This document shows positions 1,544-13,293 of a stretch of DNA of 14,225 nucleotides, piece by piece. The DNA is from a virus (lineage: Duplodnaviria; Heunggongvirae; Uroviricota; Caudoviricetes), in IMG/VR virus record IMGVR_UViG_2778261499_000007; one strand, 5' to 3'. Positions within the stretch are counted from its first letter, which is position 1, and each line of letters begins with the position of its first letter. The notes under the pieces were generated by a model. The model was not told the origin of the DNA and did not search any database. It saw only the letters and a list, made by a program, of their open reading frames with translations. The position numbers and the translations under genes were made by a program.

Positions 1544-2578
1544 TTATTTAGCCTTGGCAGCGGCGGCGGTGTTTTTAACACTCACTTTAACCACAACTTC
1601 AGGCATCATGTTCATGAAAGCATAAGAGGATTCAACGAAGATTTCGCGTTTGCCTCTGGACTCTTCCATATACATGAAAGCTTCACGTGCAGCGCCGTTT
1701 GCCAGCTTCAGGTTGCGAGCGCAAGGGCCGAAAAATTGAGTATAAACGCCCACCATATCGCCTAACGCATGCGGCTGGAACTGTGGGACTAGATAAGCAG
1801 TATTCTCTGGCAGACTATCCATTTGCACCACACGCAGGGCTAAGCCCGGAATGCGGAAGGTCGGGAAGCCCGGCAGAATATCCTCAGGGAACATCAGACC
1901 TTTATCGGTAATATTCTGATTGCCGAACAACAGCACTTTACGGAGCAGTTCATCAGTCTGAATTGCAGCAAAGAGCTCAGCACGGCAGAACAGGGTGAAA
2001 CCACGCAGAGCGCGAACGACACCACGCTGTTTAACCTTGCTCAGTGCAACCAGGTCCTGCAGCTGTTTAAGGATATCTTGAGCTAGATCCACTTCTGAAG
2101 TGGTTTGCTGTGCGCCCAGCAGTTCGCACACATTCAGTTCTTTACCCTTGGTGAGGATAATTTTGTTCTCAAAGAGAGCAAGCTGGCGTGCTTCTTCATG
2201 GGTCTGGCGTAAGCCTTCGCCCAGTTGAATAACACGACGAGCGGTTACAGACTCTAAATTCTCTTCGGAATCTTTGCCAGGAACGCGGATACCCTGCCAG
2301 TCAGAAGGATAAATAGCACTTGATGCGGCAGTGAACGCCATATCACCCGTGCCCGTTTCACGCTCATCTGCGGTAATGGTCGCCATCTGTTCACCGTAGC
2401 GCGGATACTGACCGAAAGCGGTTTGTTTCACCTGCCGAACTTTGTCATATTCAAATTTGAAGGTATTGCACAGAGCAGTAGTGTTGAAGATATCCATTGC
2501 TGAAATAATCTGATTATCCAGCGGGATGTCTTTAATCAGACCACACAGATCGCGAACTTCGAATTCTTTCTTAGCCAT
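1544..2578 (-). CDS. Major capsid protein, lambda gpE-like family (HK97-fold), about 344 aa
   Basis: Size and position match lambda E (341 aa), immediately downstream of a 111-aa D-like gene. C-terminal segment KREIFVESSYAFMNMMPEVVVKVSV resembles the lambda gpE C-terminus as recalled. ATG at 2578 is preceded by AGGAGG with 6-nt spacing; the track start at 2584 is a TTG. Confidence 0.65.
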   Translation of the reverse strand: MAKKEFEVRDLCGLIKDIPLDNQIISAMDIFNTTALCNTFKFEYDKVRQVKQTAFGQYPRYGEQMATITADERETGTGDMAFTAASSAIYPSDWQGIRVPGKDSEENLESVTARRVIQLGEGLRQTHEEARQLALFENKIILTKGKELNVCELLGAQQTTSEVDLAQDILKQLQDLVALSKVKQRGVVRALRGFTLFCRAELFAAIQTDELLRKVLLFGNQNITDKGLMFPEDILPGFPTFRIPGLALRVVQMDSLPENTAYLVPQFQPHALGDMVGVYTQFFGPCARNLKLANGAAREAFMYMEESRGKREIFVESSYAFMNMMPEVVVKVSVKNTAAAAKAK

Positions 2579-2589
2579 TTCCAACCTCC

Positions 2590-3428: not shown

Positions 3429-3775
3429 TTTACTCACATTGTCAACACCTTGATTATATAAATTCTAATAATTAGCGTAGTAACGGTATTTTCAGACCTC
3501 TATCAATCCCATCAATACGTCACCCCCACCCTTTAGATGCATACATCCGACCTACTTTGTAGGCTTGGCGTACTGCCAAGGTCGCAGCTATGCGACTCCT
3601 ATCTATCACCACTTTATAAAGCTTGATAGATATCTTTTGATCAATATCAATGTTTTCCGGGTATTTACCCGGCTATAGTTCGAATCAAGGAAGGGGAGCA
3701 TTGATAGAGACACCCAAAGGGGTGACTGAAAGTCACCTGGCATAGCCAGTGAAAGCACCCAACCGAACAAACAAA

Positions 3776-4025: not shown

Positions 4026-4286
4026 ATGACGGGGGCTAAAGATATCAGGAGACTGAGGGAAGAGCTGATAGCTGAAATTAAAGCTAAGGCAAAGCAAATG
4101 GAGATAGCCGCACAAATGGATGTAGCGGAACAGATGTACAAGATGGTTGAGGAGGGAACGCCACGACAGGTTATCGCTAAAACCTTCGGTGTGGGGATCG
4201 CCACCGTGCACAGAAGGCTGAAAGCCTATGCCGACTACCACAATATCGAGAGAAAGGAGGATGGGAGATTTAAGAAGAATAAATAG
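4026..4286 (+). CDS. Small HTH DNA-binding protein (coiled-coil N-terminus, C-terminal HTH GTPRQVIAKTFGVGIATVHRRLK), 86 aa
   Basis: ORF track; GAGGAG RBS; clear helix-turn-helix pattern; the overlapping minus-strand ORFs are low-complexity shadows. Confidence 0.55.
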   Translation: MTGAKDIRRLREELIAEIKAKAKQMEIAAQMDVAEQMYKMVEEGTPRQVIAKTFGVGIATVHRRLKAYADYHNIERKEDGRFKKNK

Positions 4287-4296
4287 TAGGAACAGG

Positions 4297-4336
4297 CCCG
4301 AAGGGCTTAGCTTTAGCTAAGGTCCTATCAGGACTC
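4297..4336. repeat. Right arm of the 40-bp inverted repeat (partner 1437-1476); hairpin-forming
   Basis: CCCGAAGGGCTTAGCTTTAGCTAAGGTCCT... is the reverse complement of 1437-1476 with about 4 mismatches; lies between the HTH gene stop and the next gene. Confidence 0.7.
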
Positions 4337-4366
4337 CCACACAGTCCAACAGGTTATTAACTAAAT

Positions 4367-4381
4367 TCAACTTCTCGCAAA
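4367..4381 (+). promoter_or_regulatory. Conserved 15-nt motif TCAACTTCTCGCAAA, copy 2, immediately upstream of the RBS of the 4393 gene
   Basis: Exact repeat of 3776-3790, at the same spacing to SD and ATG. Confidence 0.5.
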
Positions 4382-4392
4382 GGGGTACCACT

Positions 4393-5103
4393 ATGTTTAA
4401 AGGTCTTGTTGTTACGCTATTGGCTTGCATTGTATTTGGTCCATGGGTGTTAGTAATTGCTTTACCTATATTGCTGATCATGAGCTTAGGGAATGATATT
4501 AAAAAGCTGCATGCACAATATAAGGAGCATCCTGGAGCAGTCATAACAAGTCTGGTTATAGTCGCGGGGCTTATTGGCTGGGTCTACTTCTCTCTTCCCA
4601 CAGGAAATACAACTGCAAATGTAGAAGAGGCGAACGCACAGCATGAAGAAGTGGTTAACGTCGCCGACCTTACATGGGAGGACAGGGTAAAAGCATATAA
4701 ATATATTTATGGTGTGCTAGATTGCGATCTCTCTAAAGATATAGGATGCACAGATAAATACCAGATTCACGCCTGGCTGTGGAATCATGCAGAAAAAGGT
4801 GCTTGCAACCAGATTAAAGTGGCGGTTAACAGTGGGGCACCTACTGGGAAAAATAAAGATGTTCTGACGGTATGGTGCAAGGATGTAAAAGGCAATGATC
4901 GTTGGCTACAGATGCGCCACATGGACGGTGTAAGCATAGAAACTACACGAACGGCTCGATGGTATAACGGTGAACTCGTTCACGAAGCATGGCAGAATAA
5001 CGCCTGGATCACTGAGGGAACACTCCTGAATGTTGATATGGAAGCATTGAAGATGCTTAATGAGATGTACGGTGAAGCCGTAGAAACCTCTCCGATGAAA
5101 TAA
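4393..5103 (+). CDS. Membrane protein, 236 aa: N-terminal transmembrane helices and a Cys-containing C-terminal domain; function unknown
   Basis: ORF track; two long hydrophobic segments in the first 70 aa; several Cys in the C-terminal domain; followed by a strong terminator. Confidence 0.55.
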   Translation: MFKGLVVTLLACIVFGPWVLVIALPILLIMSLGNDIKKLHAQYKEHPGAVITSLVIVAGLIGWVYFSLPTGNTTANVEEANAQHEEVVNVADLTWEDRVKAYKYIYGVLDCDLSKDIGCTDKYQIHAWLWNHAEKGACNQIKVAVNSGAPTGKNKDVLTVWCKDVKGNDRWLQMRHMDGVSIETTRTARWYNGELVHEAWQNNAWITEGTLLNVDMEALKMLNEMYGEAVETSPMK

Positions 5104-5113
5104 CCACACCTAC

Positions 5114-5143
5114 CAGGGGCCATCACGGCCCCTTTTTATTTAT
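5114..5143 (+). terminator. Rho-independent terminator (AGGGGCC-atcac-GGCCCCT followed by TTTTATTTAT)
   Basis: Perfect 7-bp GC-rich stem, 5-nt loop and T-rich tail starting 11 nt after the stop of the 4393..5103 gene. Confidence 0.7.
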
Positions 5144-5200
5144 CCCCTATTTACACTCCTTTCAGTCCTGATCATCACTCCCTACCCCCTGATCAATTAA

Positions 5201-5250
5201 CCCCTATTTAAGGGGTATTTAATGGGTATTTAATGCCTATTTATTGATTT
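5201..5250. repeat. Phased tandem repeats of TATTTAA at about 11-bp period (4 to 5 copies), plus a second CCCCTATTTA copy at 5144-5153
   Basis: cccctatttaa / ggggtatttaat / gggtatttaat / gcctatttatt / gatttaat; periodicity of about one helical turn. Confidence 0.6.
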
Positions 5251-6486
5251 AATCCGTTTTATGCCACAACCGCCCGGTTGACAGAGTAAGAGAGAGGGTG
5301 TAACCCTTTTTCGTAATACTAATAAAATCAATAGCTTAGCTCAATTGGCCTTTTCTCTGTTTTTGTCAAATTTAACATACCCTAAAAAACTGCAAAATCT
5401 GGCTGCAAGATTATCTGCAGCTGGATTTCTTACACCTCAATTTGTGGTATCACCCTGACTAGTTTGTGCATAAAATGAACAGTTTTTAACATTTCCTCTT
5501 CACCTGGTAACCACACAAAAAGCTAAAAACGAGGCACAGATAATCTTAGAGGCCTGTTTTCTTGTTATCACTCTGGAAACGTCGTAGAAGTGATTTTGAT
5601 GAAAGATGACCTACCCTATTACACCCCCATTTTTTGTTATCACAATTGCATCCTGTGCGGTGTATGGCTGTGTGCTGAAAGCGGTCTTGGGTGTGGGTGT
5701 CAGAAATATCCATTAGCGGTATTAATACCCGTCAGATGTTCGTCTGAGGTGCCAGGCAGGCGCTCCCCCACCTCCCTTTTTTCTTCTAACAATTCTCAAA
5801 TATCACACCACTGCCGACCACGTTACTACTCTGTTAATTCTTAAGCTTTGCTGTATGTTGTGCACATTATTTATTCAGGTGCGTGTACGTAAATTCTGGG
5901 CCTCCTTATCATGATTTTTAAATCAGATTTTGTAGTTCGGTTTCTTAGTGTAGATAAGATCTATTATGTTAAATGCAATTTTCCCAACCCTTCAAATCAA
6001 TGACTTACATGTAAGCATGCACTAACACCCCACACAGCACATTAGACGTATAGATGGCTATATCCCACATTTTTGATTGTTTTGTAGTCATTCCCCTGAT
6101 CATTTAACCAGTATAGTTTGTTCTTTGCAGACCACAAAATCGGAATTTACATCTGATTAACATAATCTGTTAGCATGATCACTATTACCCACACAACAAT
6201 AACCCCATGCAAGACTCTTCAGGCAATTTATCGGCGTGTTGGTGTGAACAGTCTTTCATGTTCTTTATGTTTTCATTGTCCTGTGTGAGGGAAGGATGGA
6301 CTGCCCCAGGGGCCACACTTATGATGCCCGGTCAACATAGCTATTGATAAAATCAACGGGTGTTGATCTGCATATTTCCCACACATGAGAGGAAATCAGA
6401 GCAAAGAGAGAGGAGAGAGGTTTGCTAGTCAAAATAGGTCAATTGACGGCTAATACAGAGTAAAAAATCAGATGCAATCACTCCCC

Positions 6487-6669
6487 ACCTGTTGGGATTT
6501 CCCGCACCTGTATAAGAATACAGTCATACTTTCCCGTTATACGGTCATACACATGATGGAATAACCTGTTGGAATTTCCTACAGGTTTAACCATACACAG
6601 GAGCTAACCTGTTGGAATTTCCTACTACTACCTGTCGGTATTTCCCACAGGTACCTGTTGGAATTTCCC
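6487..6669. repeat. Iteron array (5 copies of ACCTGTTGGAATTTCCY at 6487, 6564, 6607, 6630, 6653), candidate replication origin
   Basis: Near-identical 17-mers; the last three are spaced 23 bp apart; ACCTGT/ACAGGT inverted half-sites; followed by an AT-rich tract (6670-6710) and, 1.3 kb downstream, Rep-like genes. Confidence 0.7.
6508..6523. promoter_or_regulatory. Canonical SOS-box pattern CTGT-N8-ACAG (CTGTATAAGAATACAG) inside the iteron region
   Basis: Exact CTGT and ACAG half-sites with an 8-nt A/T-rich spacer. May partly reflect the iteron ACCTGT/ACAGGT half-sites. Confidence 0.35.
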
Positions 6670-6797
6670 ACACTAATAGATAAAGAGAATAGATCAATAA
6701 AAAGAACTCCCCCTATAATCCCCCAACAAGGGGGGATGGGGAGGGATCAGAGAGTGGGGAAGGTTTTCTAAGGGAAAAGCTTAACCCACAAATGAAA

Positions 6798-6826
6798 GCC
6801 TAAAGAGCATTAGCGACTCTTTAGGC
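6798..6826. other. Perfect 10-bp stem hairpin (GCCTAAAGAG-N9-CTCTTTAGGC), part of a highly structured ORF-free stretch (about 6790-7100)
   Basis: Exact inverted repeat. Nearby are GGTGAC-N21-GTCACC (6840-6872), TTAAGCC-tct-GGCTTAA, GTCCGGA-N20-TCCGGAC and tandem 17-mers at 6826-6843 and 6873-6889. Confidence 0.5.
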
Positions 6827-7231
6827 AATCTGTGTGTGGGGTGACAATGTATTCCATACATGACACGTCACCCAATTGTGTGTGGGGTGCTTACAGCACT
6901 TAAGCCTCTGGCTTAACCCTTCGGGCCTCTGTGTGGGAAGCGTAGTGCGATAGCACGTAGCTTTATAATGTGGAGTCCGGATAAGAGACTTCTGTTTCCA
7001 ATCCGGACCGTTTAAGCGAGGGATTCCGCTCGCCCGTGTATGCACACACGTAATAGGACGCTCAGAAATCGATTTTAAGGCCCAAAACGGGGCCTACAGC
7101 AACCTAAACCATACTCCATAGTGCAATTGCATTGCCTGATGCTTAAATCGCGTTGTAGGGCATCTCATGAGGTTTGAGTTTAACACCCTCCAAAGTTTTA
7201 ACAAAAAGTGCTCTCCCTCCATTGTGGGCCA

Positions 7232-7261
7232 TTGACAATCTTATTGCATAAATGCTATAAG
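7232..7261 (+). promoter_or_regulatory. Sigma70-like promoter (TTGACA-N18-TATAAG)
   Basis: Consensus -35 hexamer with a 5-of-6 match -10 at 18-nt spacing. One of five (A/T)TTGACAAT-type repeats in 7230-7560. Confidence 0.4.
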
Positions 7262-7551
7262 TGATTCTGGTTTTGACACGGTAGGGGCCATTAATAATGT
7301 TTACCCCTTTGCTGTGGACTTGCTTGCACCTATAGCACACCTAAATGATAATAATTCTCATTGACAATTGGTTGACAATATGATAAGATTATAAATAGGG
7401 GGAGAAACAGATCCGGAGGTCAATGTGGAAATTACTGATGCAATAGCGATCATCAACCTGGCTGTACTGTGGTGCGGTGTTGCCTACATAGCCGGAGTAA
7501 CTGCAATCGACAATCTCGAAGAAAAAATGATAGATAAATACAAAAAGATTG

Positions 7552-7580
7552 TTGACAATTTGACGAATGTCTGATAAAAT
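7552..7580 (+). promoter_or_regulatory. Sigma70-like promoter (TTGACA-N17-TAAAAT) about 125 nt upstream of the 7706 gene
   Basis: Consensus -35 and near-consensus -10 at optimal spacing, oriented toward the replication gene block. Confidence 0.45.
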
Positions 7581-7915: not shown

Positions 7916-7939
7916 TAAATAATCTTGGAGGATCATATT

Positions 7940-8326
7940 ATGGCAAATAACGATGAAAATTTTACTCCCTTTTTTAAACGTTTCATCAAATACACTTTTA
8001 AAAATCCGATTGCAAAAACTGCAACCAATAAAGAAAGATTTCACTTAAATGTGTTGGAGGTAACAATTTATGGTGAAATGGTAAGTTATTCTTTTAAGGA
8101 GGGTGAAGAAATAATTATCTCAGAGCTCTCGACGCAGACATTAGCAGACGATTATGATGTTACAGAGAAAACAGTAAGGTCGGCTATCAAAACATTAGAG
8201 GCTGCAGGTCTGATAAACGTTAAACGAGAACAGGGCAAATCGAATATCTACGAATTGCTAATTACCCCTGATCAGCTTGGCAAGATGTGCGATGAGCAGG
8301 GTATTAGAGAATATTTTATATATTAA
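7940..8326 (+). CDS. Rep-like winged-helix protein, short paralog (about 128 aa); replication-initiator-type HTH
   Basis: Segment ISELSTQTLADDYDVTEKTVRSAIKTLEAAGLINVKREQGKSNIYELL fits the winged-helix pattern of phage/plasmid replication initiators. GGAGG RBS before the ATG at 7940 (track start 7925 is a TTG). Paralogous to the next gene. Confidence 0.5.
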   Translation: MANNDENFTPFFKRFIKYTFKNPIAKTATNKERFHLNVLEVTIYGEMVSYSFKEGEEIIISELSTQTLADDYDVTEKTVRSAIKTLEAAGLINVKREQGKSNIYELLITPDQLGKMCDEQGIREYFIY

Positions 8327-8337
8327 TGGGGGGAACT

Positions 8338-9258
8338 ATGGCAGGAAATAAACTGGGGGCACCTTTTACCCCCTCTTTCGATTTCTTTATTCAGTATGAT
8401 TTTGATAAACCAGTAGCAACAACAATTTCTAATAAAAAGACTGGAACAGTTAAAGAGCGCTTCTATTTAACAGACTTTGAAATGTTGATTTATGGAAAAA
8501 TGGTGGGATTTCATTTTAACGGTGAGGGAATTTATATTTCAGAGCAAAAACTGGCAACTCAACTCAGAAAGGATCGCGGGAAAATAGTAAGCGCTATTAA
8601 ATCTCTGGAAAATGCCGGGCTTATTTCTAAAGATAGCCGGAAAGGCATGTCTAATAATTACAAATTGCTGAAAACCCCTGATCAATTGTTGGATATGTGC
8701 ATTGAGAAGGGCGTAAATATTCCAGAAGGCATCTTAGAGACTTTCGGAAAGACTGCCGCTAAAGTAGAACAGCCTCAGGAAGCCCCAAAACAAGCCACAC
8801 AGCAAGCTAAAAAGGCTAAAGTAGTGCAATTGCCTACCCAAGACACTAAAGCGCCTCAAATTAACGCTGTTAGTGACAAGCCACGCCGGGGCCGTCCTGT
8901 GAAAGATGTCACCGATGGAGGCTGGATCGTCCTGGGTGAGAGTGAGGCTAAAGGCATAATGCGATCACTGTGGGAAAGCAAATACAAAGATTTAAACAAA
9001 CGTCGCCCGATCCTTTTGTCAAAGATTCAGGAGGATTTTTACACCGCAGAAGAGGTAAGCCAACATAAAGGGAAAAGAGAGGGTGAAATCTGGAAACCGG
9101 AAGAATACTGGCATTTAACCAGACCTGTGTTTATTTTTGCAAATAAGCTTATTGGGATGGGATTTGAAATATTGTTGGATAAAACCTGCGGAGATTATCC
9201 CGAAATATTGTGGAGAAATGTTAGAAAAAATAAAAAAGGCATTTTAGAGTTTAAATAA
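8338..9258 (+). CDS. Rep-like replication initiator, long paralog (about 306 aa) with a C-terminal extension
   Basis: N-terminal 120 aa parallels the preceding gene (MA.N...FTP.F...; ...SAIKSLENAGLISKDSRKGMSNNYKLL). The previous stop overlaps an upstream ATG at 8326 (TAATG); 8338 is preceded by a G-rich SD. Iterons lie upstream. Confidence 0.5.
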   Translation: MAGNKLGAPFTPSFDFFIQYDFDKPVATTISNKKTGTVKERFYLTDFEMLIYGKMVGFHFNGEGIYISEQKLATQLRKDRGKIVSAIKSLENAGLISKDSRKGMSNNYKLLKTPDQLLDMCIEKGVNIPEGILETFGKTAAKVEQPQEAPKQATQQAKKAKVVQLPTQDTKAPQINAVSDKPRRGRPVKDVTDGGWIVLGESEAKGIMRSLWESKYKDLNKRRPILLSKIQEDFYTAEEVSQHKGKREGEIWKPEEYWHLTRPVFIFANKLIGMGFEILLDKTCGDYPEILWRNVRKNKKGILEFK

Positions 9259-11190: not shown

Positions 11191-13293
11191 ATGGCAATGA
11201 AGGAAGTAGCCAAGCTAACAAACGTTATTTACTGGGATTCTGATAAATCCAGCTGGCGAAAAGAAGTTAAACGGCTTGAGGATTATAAAAAATCCTGGAA
11301 GAAAGCTACCGACGATATAGCTAAAGCGGATTTTAAATCTAATCAGGCTGTGCTCAGAACACAAAGAACACGCGCTAAGGTGGAAGAGCAGATCGCCAGA
11401 GCACAGAAGAAACAACGTGCTCAGGCTGTCAGCCGTCTGACCGGGGGCAATAATCCGGAGCTCTCCTCTATGCGCAAGTTCTATCAGCAGCAAGCCAGAG
11501 AGGCCGCCAGACAACAAAAACTGTTAGATCGTAGTGTTGGAGATGTTCAGCACAGAAAAGCACGTGTAGGGGCCAACAGTGCACGAATCAGCAGCATGTT
11601 TGATGGCTCCCTGGTTGCTCAGTTCCAATCCAGAATTCAGAGAGTTAATGCTGATTATGCTAAAGGGGCTATTAACCTGCAGACCTATAATCAGAAAATG
11701 GCCCGACTCAGATCTGAAATGAAGATGGCAACAGCAGAGGCCGGAAAATTTCAGAGCAGACTAGACAAAGCTGCGGTAGCAGGATCAAAGCTGCATGACA
11801 ACCTGGGCAAACTCAACTCCACACTAGGCAAGATAGCTATTGGCCTTACTGCCGCTGGCTGGGGTGTTCAGCGTGCTGTTAGTGGTGCTATGGGTAGCCT
11901 TGCAGATCGCAACAGTGCGTATTTCAGCTTAATGGCCCAGAACAAGGATGATAAAGAAAAAACTGATCAGCAGATGGCCTACGTCAAAAGAATCTCTTAT
12001 GACTACGGGATGGATCAGCGTGAGACTGAAGGCGGCTTTATGCGCTTTGCTGCAGCCACACCAAGCATAAAAGAGAAAGATAAGCAGGATCTCTTTGAGG
12101 CTATGGCGATTAAAGGCCGATCAGTGGGTGCTACCGCAGACCAACAGAACAGGGCTATCGTTGCACTAGGACAAATATATAGCAAGGGCGGTCGAGTGTA
12201 TGCGGAAGAGCTTAAGGGCCAACTTTCTGAAGCCCTGGCAGGTTCTCAGGTAGATTTCACTAAGGCCGCTATCGATGCCGGAGTCATCAAGAAAGAGGAA
12301 GAATTTAATAAAGCCCTTGAAGATGGCAAGATCACCATGGACAAGCTTCTTCCTTCTCTGGTGAAAATCTGGGGTGCTGCAAAAGAAACTAAAGCTTTTG
12401 CTGAATCCATGAAACAGCCAGAAGTAGCAATGCAGCGCATGAAAAACAGCTTTAACGAGCTGGCGATTCAGTTTATGGGTGTTGTGGATCCTGCAGATGG
12501 CGTTATTAGCTTATCTGAATCTCTAATCTCCATCTTCGAAGACCTCACCACTGATATGGACGGCAGCGGGAGCGCGGCAAAACAGTTCGGTGAGGCAGTC
12601 GGGGCTGCCATGCGGGAGATCATGTATTGGGTAGGCTTCGCTAAGGGATATATCGAGATTAAGGCTAAAGAGTTCGGCATGACCAGTGAGGAAGTCGGAG
12701 GATGGATCGGCAAGCTGGTTGTTGCAATCGCAGGTCTGAAGATCATCGGCACACTTCTTTCTCCGTTTACCGGACTGATTTCACTTGTCACACAGCTGAT
12801 AGCCTTGTTAGGTAAAATCCCTGGTATGAGCAAGCTTCTGGCTTCTGCCTCAGGTGGAACGGCAACAGGAGCAGCGGTCATCAGTGCAGGATCTAACGCT
12901 GAAAGAAGTTTCATTGATGGCAAGACGCAGGAAATGAGTAAGGAGAACTCAAAACAGGGTGCTTTGTTTGAGCTGGGAAGATTTGTTAGCAATGCTGGCG
13001 CACTATTCACACCTGGCGGTGATACTGGTCCTTTGTTCGATCAGGTCAGAGGCTGGTTTAATAAAGGGCCAACATTGACAGTAGACACTGGCATCAGACC
13101 AACACCAACGGGTGGCATAGCTATCCAGAATGGTGGATATCAACCAGTCCAAGTAAATGTAGCCCCACAAGGTGAGATTTCCGGCAAATGGGAGATAACC
13201 ATCGATGAGGGGGGAATTGCCAGGGTAATTCAGAAGGAAGTCAGCGATCAGTTGGATTGGAAAGCCACGCAGGAATCTAACCAGCTTTTCTAA
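11191..13293 (+). CDS. Tail tape measure protein-like, 700 aa
   Basis: Long coiled-coil N-terminal region; segment ADQQNRAIVALGQIYSKGGRVYAEELKGQLSEALAGSQVDF matches the conserved tape-measure domain pattern (SKG...EEL..QL.E.L.G); long hydrophobic helices at about residues 505-560; Gly-rich C-terminus. Confidence 0.7.
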   Translation: MAMKEVAKLTNVIYWDSDKSSWRKEVKRLEDYKKSWKKATDDIAKADFKSNQAVLRTQRTRAKVEEQIARAQKKQRAQAVSRLTGGNNPELSSMRKFYQQQAREAARQQKLLDRSVGDVQHRKARVGANSARISSMFDGSLVAQFQSRIQRVNADYAKGAINLQTYNQKMARLRSEMKMATAEAGKFQSRLDKAAVAGSKLHDNLGKLNSTLGKIAIGLTAAGWGVQRAVSGAMGSLADRNSAYFSLMAQNKDDKEKTDQQMAYVKRISYDYGMDQRETEGGFMRFAAATPSIKEKDKQDLFEAMAIKGRSVGATADQQNRAIVALGQIYSKGGRVYAEELKGQLSEALAGSQVDFTKAAIDAGVIKKEEEFNKALEDGKITMDKLLPSLVKIWGAAKETKAFAESMKQPEVAMQRMKNSFNELAIQFMGVVDPADGVISLSESLISIFEDLTTDMDGSGSAAKQFGEAVGAAMREIMYWVGFAKGYIEIKAKEFGMTSEEVGGWIGKLVVAIAGLKIIGTLLSPFTGLISLVTQLIALLGKIPGMSKLLASASGGTATGAAVISAGSNAERSFIDGKTQEMSKENSKQGALFELGRFVSNAGALFTPGGDTGPLFDQVRGWFNKGPTLTVDTGIRPTPTGGIAIQNGGYQPVQVNVAPQGEISGKWEITIDEGGIARVIQKEVSDQLDWKATQESNQLF

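Follow-up and report, generated by a model that had tools for sequence, protein, structure and literature searches.

An 11-bp-phased array of conserved boxes in Escherichia coli plasmids that carry phage structural genes, and its possible role as a protein-binding site

A tandem array of 7-bp TATTTAA-type boxes, set one helical turn apart, appears from the comparison of its relatives to be under box-specific selection in a family of E. coli plasmids that carry phage structural genes. The array is not an origin of replication, a Rep site or a strong intrinsic bend, and it is not recognisable as a pac or cos site. It is read here tentatively, with well under even confidence, as a one-face cooperative protein-binding array like R1 parC and R388 stbS, for which an 86-aa protein of the same element would be the candidate reader and plasmid maintenance or local DNA architecture the role. 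All coordinates refer to the window, that is the whole stretch of DNA that was analysed (14,225 nt).

The plasmid family and the layout of the array

The termini of the window overlap exactly by 77 bp, and the window therefore represents a complete circle of 14,148 bp, a circular E. coli plasmid with phage structural genes and an iteron Rep on board. Its family is made up of E. coli plasmids that are circular, non-mobilizable and 13.2-13.7 kb long; they were found in 7 of 5,426 complete E. coli genomes and never in the chromosome, and many 13-14-kb contigs of the family are present in public assemblies. The comparison set included 29 sequences, namely nine plasmid or complete-genome records (eight circular plasmids and one trimer) and twenty further contigs. 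The trimer, L009 (NZ_CP043822.1; 39,610 bp), is a head-to-tail repeat of a 13,552-bp unit with slight differences in gene calls among its three copies, and may be either a real multimer or an assembly artefact. The genes to which the text refers are as follows.

1544-2584, minus strand: major capsid protein
4026-4286, plus strand: gene of the 86-aa HTH_7 protein (long helix at the N-terminus, Hin-like HTH)
7925-8326: truncated Rep paralogue of the window plasmid
8326-9258: O-like replication initiator (Rep)
11191-13293: tape measure protein

The family also encodes a 111-aa protein, a Dit-like protein, probable tail chaperones and several small HTH proteins. No terminase, portal or integrase is encoded by the element, and scans of its unannotated proteins against Pfam, PHROG and NCBIfam detected no ParM, ParA, TubZ-type NTPase or ParR, the other genes being phage structural. 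The capsid and tape measure proteins share about 25% identity with their counterparts in rV5-like myoviruses. At the DNA level no relatives outside the plasmid family were found in phage or plasmid collections, and a search of 5.8 billion proteins with the capsid and HTH proteins returned family members only, all at least 82% identical. The plasmid may represent a phage satellite in plasmid form, or else it may carry structural proteins that act as decoys. A literature search found no paper on this plasmid, and extrachromosomal phage satellites were still described as hypothetical in a 2025 review (PMC12282955).

The array reads CAATTAA-CCCC-TATTTAA-GGGG-TATTTAA-TGGG-TATTTAA-TGCC-TATTTAT-TGATTTAAT (5194-5253), each full unit being composed of a 4-nt G/C-rich spacer and a 7-bp TATTTAA/T core. 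Its components and immediate neighbours are listed below.

5115-5137, plus strand: intrinsic terminator of the operon of the HTH and 236-aa genes, from a terminator scan
5137-5154, plus strand: upstream pair TATTTAT-CCCC-TATTTAC (set A)
5155-5193, plus strand: variable insert with two repeats of about 22 bp (ACTCC...TGATCA), present according to the alignments in some family members only
5194-5253, plus strand: main array (set B), with a degenerate unit, four full 11-bp units and a terminal partial unit
5194-5200, plus strand: degenerate unit CAATTAA, in register and preceding the full units
5205-5211, 5216-5222 and 5227-5233, plus strand: TATTTAA cores at exact 11-nt steps
5238-5244, plus strand: TATTTAT core, 11 nt after the previous core
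5245-5253, plus strand: partial unit TGATTTAAT that closes the array

The original prediction of TATTTAA units recurring about 11 bp apart was confirmed, with cores starting at 5205, 5216, 5227 and 5238, as was that of an additional unit upstream: CCCCTATTTA is indeed present at 5144-5153, its core being TATTTAC at 5148-5154. The other half of this upstream pair, TATTTAT at 5137-5143, fuses with the T-tract of the terminator. Set A is out of helical phase with the main array, from which it is separated by a 46-bp insert; in relatives that do not carry this insert, set A is contiguous and in register with the main array. The insert is missing from six relatives (L001, L002, L006, L008, L009 and L132), and is therefore unlikely to be essential.

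The phasing of the array is far beyond chance. Tandem Repeats Finder reported a period of 11 with 3.5 copies and a score of 57, and when the element was simulated 3000 times with a first-order Markov model, two TATTTAW boxes 11 nt apart came up in just 4 runs, while the TATTTAA heptamer by itself is not over-represented in the window (6 observed, 3.5 expected). Repeats of this type are confined to one place in the element. Further copies of the box at 3659-3668 and 7392-7401 (reverse strand) were considered as operators and rejected, as neither is kept in relatives; one forms a hairpin loop and the other sits before a small ORF.

Conservation of the boxes and a candidate binding protein

The conservation of the repeat in related elements was checked, and the array was found in 29 of 29 relatives covering the region, in 21 distinct versions. 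Units were counted in an 11-nt register, upstream from the fixed 3' end, which gave five in-register units in 26 sequences and six in three, and the length of the array varies by whole 11-bp units only. Core positions carry 2.0 bits of information at four sites, 1.5 bits at two and 0.85 bits at the last, and the four spacer positions 0.4-0.7 bits each. Positions A6, T8, T9 and A10 of the array never vary, and the spacers interchange among CCCC, GGGG, TGGG, TGCC and TACC, remaining G/C-rich throughout. Every core is kept in a diverged clade (82-87% identical) whose flanking DNA differs by about 15%. The combination of near-invariant cores, free spacers and whole-unit steps argues for base-specific reading of the heptamer with strict spacing, and not for composition alone. 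The earlier proposal that the helical phasing points to cooperative protein binding gains support from these same alignments, in which an invariant core, free spacers and 11-bp copy steps would be expected marks of such a site and recur in all 29 relatives.

Judging from sequence and predicted structure, the best element-encoded candidate to bind the array is probably the 86-aa protein. Its gene (4026-4286) heads the long genes of the operon whose end lies at the array, with two small ORFs before it on the same strand. The protein matches HTH_7 (E=3.4e-6) and HTH_23 only in Pfam and aligns to the DNA-binding domain of Hin (1HCR) with E=3.5e-4. Its AF2 model (pLDDT 84) begins with a long helix, continues into an HTH of three helices and ends in a basic tail; a Foldseek search with this model retrieved only generic winged-HTH repressors, none at E <= 0.001. 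Residues 47-66 and 68-76 of the HTH, including the recognition helix, are identical in all aligned proteins of the family, A67T in L008 being the sole substitution within residues 47-76, and most other substitutions are N-terminal. Hin-type domains cover about 12-13 bp and make minor-groove contacts in AT-rich DNA, a footprint and a preference that would suit one monomer per 11-bp unit.

Distant homologues of the 86-aa protein were limited in a full HMMER search to two metagenomic singletons with 43-44% identity, both of which keep the recognition-helix core ATVHRR; their contigs (806 and 1210 bp) end before any position at which an array could lie. Scans of viral contigs for further homologues were empty, a metagenome scan yielded one more family member, and a genome scan produced a spurious match.

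The ORF-poor block and the origin

The array opens an ORF-poor block of about 2.3 kb (5104-7400). The following features lie 3' of the array.

5277-5283, plus strand: invariant GTTGACA
5326-5338, plus strand: match to the IHF consensus, AATCAATAGCTTA, a consensus match only, preceded by an A/T-rich stretch and kept in diverged relatives
5364-5377: invariant 14-bp near-palindrome, TGTCAAATTTAACA
5390-5420: hairpin with a compensatory change in the diverged clade
5947-5974: Xer-like core site, AGTGTAGATAA-GATCTA-TTATGTTAAAT
6487-6746, plus strand: replication origin, with iterons followed by an AT-rich and then a GC-rich stretch
6487-6668: five Rep iterons of 21-23 bp
6673-6705: AT-rich stretch of the origin
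6707-6746: GC-rich stretch of the origin
7361-7389 and 7552-7580: strong sigma-70-type promoters upstream of the rep operon (TTGACA-17-TAAGAT and TTGACA-17-TAAAAT, both with TG)

The terminator at the entrance of the block has a GGGGCC-ATCAC-GGCCCC hairpin followed by T5 that is kept in most relatives. On its other side, GTTGACA is located either 30 or 40 bp 3' of the last full unit, and the 10-bp difference between these two spacing alleles gives a hint, from two alleles only, of a face-of-helix relationship with the array. No usable or conserved -10 hexamer was found 15-19 bp after GTTGACA in any relative, and the promoter scan was empty here. The idea that GTTGACA belongs to a sigma-70 promoter activated from the array upstream of it was therefore rejected, and sigma-32 and sigma-54 patterns, compared by eye, did not fit either.

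The array shares the block with the origin and with the Xer-like site, and the block as a whole looks like a cluster of cis-acting maintenance sites. The Xer-like site has a 6-bp centre, a right arm that matches the XerD arm of dif at 11 of 11 positions of E. coli and a left arm that matches the XerC arm at 7 of 11; it is invariant in seven aligned relatives, diverged clade included, save for one position of the left arm. These matches make it a candidate XerC/XerD multimer-resolution core. The outer stem of the hairpin at 5390-5420 changes from CTGCA/TGCAG to TGCC/GGCA in L130 and L132.

Between 5300 and 6450 about 1.1 kb free of ORFs is as conserved as the coding genes, the main clade being 96-100% identical there and the diverged clade 84-86%. 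A large structured RNA within 5290-6450 was considered and rejected, given single-sequence fold z-scores of 0.18 and 0.45. The downstream ORF-free stretch had no Rfam matches, and folding of the alignment gave only two local hairpin regions, with equal strength on both strands. TTGACA is enriched in 5278-7552, which holds six of the seven plus-strand hexamers of the element. Each of the two rep-operon promoters is accompanied by a duplicated TTGACAAT-like box, and a conserved hydrophobic ORF of 49 aa (7425-7574) lies between them.

The original prediction placed the array next to the origin, which is misleading, since the Rep iterons are 1.25 kb away, though in the same ORF-poor block. The iterons occur in at least six sequence versions among relatives that also differ in their Rep allele, which suggests one backbone with several Rep/iteron specificity groups, possibly incompatibility groups. 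The array itself was rejected as a set of Rep-binding iterons, as the true iterons at 6487-6668 change with Rep and the array is constant. Its constancy while the iterons switch implies that the reader is a factor conserved across the family or derived from the host. Compared with the iterons and DUE 13-mers of theta plasmids (RK2, pSC101, P1), the array is similar in being made of AT-rich tandem direct repeats within a non-coding replication and maintenance block, but its unit is 11 bp long and invariant, and it lies 1.25 kb from the 21-23-bp iterons of the element's own origin.

Two further observations concern the genes on either side of the block. The hypervariable gene at 4300-5103, between the HTH gene and the array, has alleles of 173, 179, 195, 225 and 236 aa; its product has N-terminal membrane segments (assigned by eye in the 236-aa translation) and no family match. 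This region has the appearance of a cargo cassette open to exchange, with the HTH gene at one edge and the terminator and array at the other. Directly upstream of the full-length rep gene, 7925-8326 encodes a 133-aa truncated copy of the N-terminal winged-helix domain of Rep; the nine plasmid or complete-genome relatives have one rep gene only, and L130 and L163 carry a 128-aa gene at the position of the paralogue.

Possible roles of the array

If the boxes are read by a protein, the 4-bp G/C-rich spacers would hold five to six 7-bp boxes one helical turn apart on the same face of the duplex, and a small DNA-binding protein could load onto them side by side and cooperatively to form a short nucleoprotein filament or wrap. 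The most likely binder would be the conserved 86-aa protein of the element, whose Hin-like HTH would recognise about 11-13 bp of AT-rich sequence and whose long N-terminal helix could provide protein-protein contacts. Such a complex would most probably serve plasmid maintenance. The array could act in pairing or like a centromere, in the manner of R1 parC or R388 stbS but with no plasmid-encoded NTPase; of the options in the original prediction, a partition centromere would agree best with the anatomy, although the plasmid encodes no partition NTPase. Alternatively, it could be an architectural element that functions together with the nearby IHF-like site and palindrome.

In R1 parC, ParR binds 11-bp iterons that are arranged in two groups of five (PMC2241845). 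R388 stbS also has two groups of five repeats, each 9 bp long and set apart by 2-bp spacers, which gives an 11-bp cycle; its reader, StbA, is a small HTH protein that operates with no NTPase from the plasmid (bioRxiv 10.1101/2022.04.29.490116). The array resembles parC in its tandem direct 11-bp repeats, in their arrangement in sets of five and in its location on an E. coli plasmid, and the cooperative binding of a small protein on one face that is described for parC (PMC2241845) is for the array a proposal. However, parC flanks the parMR promoter and is served by a ribbon-helix-helix reader and an actin-like ATPase, whereas the array is accompanied by neither ParM nor ParR, has no detected promoter inside, follows a terminator and is unrelated in repeat sequence. 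With stbS it shares the 11-bp cycle, the presence of a gene for a small HTH protein and the lack of a plasmid NTPase. In contrast to the array, which occurs at one place only and downstream of the candidate gene, stbS is located in the stbA promoter, and StbA represses other promoters with 2-5 repeats; the candidate of the plasmid is assigned to Hin-like HTH_7 only. With ParM and ParR not found, a candidate binder that Pfam places in HTH_7 and HTH_23, and a position outside any detected promoter, the array probably belongs to neither family, although by analogy it would work most like these centromeres.

The maintenance reading is weakened by the position of the array, 3' of a terminator and not in the promoter of its candidate binder as in parC and stbS, and by the hypervariable cargo gene that lies between the two. 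The lack of a ParM, ParA or TubZ-type NTPase and of informative homologues of the 86-aa protein weakens it further, and the centromere option in particular hinges on copy number, since a high-copy plasmid needs no centromere. In a bolder version, which is decidedly unlikely, the plasmid would be an extrachromosomal phage satellite and the array a dedicated cis site read by the 86-aa protein, for packaging by a helper or for NTPase-free segregation. If this were true, the array and its reader would make up a novel pair of protein and site without relatives beyond this E. coli family. Direct repeats arrayed at 11 bp are a signature of nucleoprotein filaments that move or organise plasmids (parC, stbS), and to these the array would add an unrelated box sequence, a stand-alone Hin-type HTH as the candidate reader and no motor protein, in the setting of a plasmid that has capsid and tail genes and is devoid of packaging genes. 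As a handle for segregation or packaging, it would offer an experimental entry to the maintenance and mobilisation of plasmid-borne satellites; as a host-factor site or an architectural bend only, it would be ordinary plasmid anatomy.

It is very improbable that the array works by DNA mechanics only, be it through intrinsic bending or through easy melting in the service of the origin. Curvature was computed with a wedge model and duplex stability with standard nearest-neighbour energies. The predicted curvature of the array is above average, its maximum of 8.1 degrees per turn lying at the 95th percentile of the element, but this is far under the 13.2 degrees of a phased A6 control, four stronger bends are predicted elsewhere in the same block, and the units are T3A2 with TpA steps and not A-tracts; the intrinsically bent DNA that had been put forward for these repeats is therefore not well supported. 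At 40 bp the array belongs to the least stable 1% of the element (99th percentile, among the ten lowest stretches), and its AT cores and GC spacers alternate with the helical repeat in a manner that could confer anisotropic flexibility. It is not the stability minimum, though, and is unremarkable at 100 bp (88th percentile); its GC spacers would break up melting, and the iterons, with their own AT-rich stretch at 6673-6705, are 1.25 kb away, so that what defines a DNA unwinding element, a stability minimum beside the iterons, was not found here. Bending or unwinding alone, as modelled, would be a weak explanation, and would leave unexplained why A6, T8, T9 and A10 are invariant while composition-equivalent spacers vary. 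It is somewhat less improbable, though still a poor prospect, that the array has no function and is a slippage-prone minisatellite beside a recombination hotspot, the boundary of the cargo cassette, with an apparent conservation that reflects nothing more than the youth of the family. Members are known from E. coli only and their proteins are at least 82% identical, so the family is narrow; the copy number and the neighbouring 22-bp repeats vary, and the array forms the right-hand edge of the hypervariable 4300-5100 segment. Against this, spacers have diverged repeatedly while the cores remained unchanged, the number of in-register units stays at five to six across 21 distinct versions, and even the clade with about 15% different flanks keeps every core.

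A packaging role would follow if the plasmid were a phage satellite and the array a packaging-start site for the small terminase of a helper phage or for the HTH protein of the element as an adaptor, which is improbable on present data. The element encodes a capsid, a tape measure, a Dit-like protein and probable tail chaperones but neither terminase nor portal, so that the plasmid, if transduced, must be recognised by a foreign packaging machine; the roughly 25% identity of its capsid and tape measure to those of rV5-like phages and the 39.6-kb head-to-tail trimer of one record are in line with this reading, and small terminases often bind phased repeats, as in SPP1 pacL and lambda cosB. However, among 50,697 phage records no similar array was found and no Escherichia phage matched, the only weak matches being to Vibrio and Cellulophaga phages, and no such array occurred outside the family in 5,426 complete E. 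coli genomes and their prophages or in related IMG/VR contigs. A scan of IMG/VR with generic array patterns retrieved only unrelated AT-rich arrays. In the 86-aa protein the long helix comes first and the HTH last, the reverse of typical small terminases, and it matched no terminase family; there is also no known helper phage. The pac or cos site suggested in the original prediction thus found no support in phage records, in E. coli genomes outside the family, in related IMG/VR contigs or in a terminase gene. The late-promoter motif of rV5, TGGTAAAATA (PMC3606486), was also compared with the array and rejected, as the window shows no excess of it and the array differs from it by more than 2 mismatches.

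A host protein, such as an OmpR/PhoB-type response regulator, H-NS or IHF, might instead read the array and thereby regulate or insulate the GTTGACA region, a reading that we consider unlikely but that is, ahead of packaging, the chief rival of the maintenance reading. OmpR/PhoB-type regulators bind head-to-tail to hexamers 5 bp apart. The half-sites of PmrA, CTTAAG or XTTAAT, are separated by five base pairs and bound head-to-tail (PMC3973317). The hexamer-plus-5-bp geometry of the array is that of the PmrA box, and the array can also be read as TTTAAG-N5-TTTAAT-N5-TTTAAT; its direct hexamer or heptamer repeats with an 11-bp period thus resemble PmrA, PhoP and pho boxes, TTTAAG/TTTAAT plus 5 bp fitting the PmrA half-site pattern. 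The PhoP box is (T/G)GTTTA-N5-(T/G)GTTTA, and TATTTA-N5-TATTTA is one base per hexamer off this consensus. The invariant GTTGACA at 30 or 40 bp, a 10-bp step that approximately keeps the helical face, points in the same direction, as do unrelated IMG/VR contigs in which a TATTTAT-N4 array lies straight upstream of a TTGACA-N17-TATTTT promoter. On the other hand, short AT-rich consensus matches come cheap. T5 and A6, which rank with the most conserved positions of the array, lie outside the PmrA hexamer, conservation being shifted two bases upstream, and the positions that PmrA requires (the last A, and K) are the variable ones in the array; similarly, the PhoP consensus requires G at an invariant A of the array. 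PmrA, PhoP and pho boxes have two half-sites, of which ArcA sites may contain a larger number, and overlap a promoter or lie beside it, whereas the array has five to six units and in no relative is GTTGACA followed by an acceptable -10.

The unrelated contigs deserve mention in their own right. IMG/VR contig 3300046000_008440 (L145, 2750-2860) and five siblings carry four to five TATTTAT-TTGC units at 11-bp spacing, directly 5' of a good promoter, TTGACA-17-TATTTT, for an L5 gp82-like gene, and this group is an independent case of the layout in which an array is combined with TTGACA.
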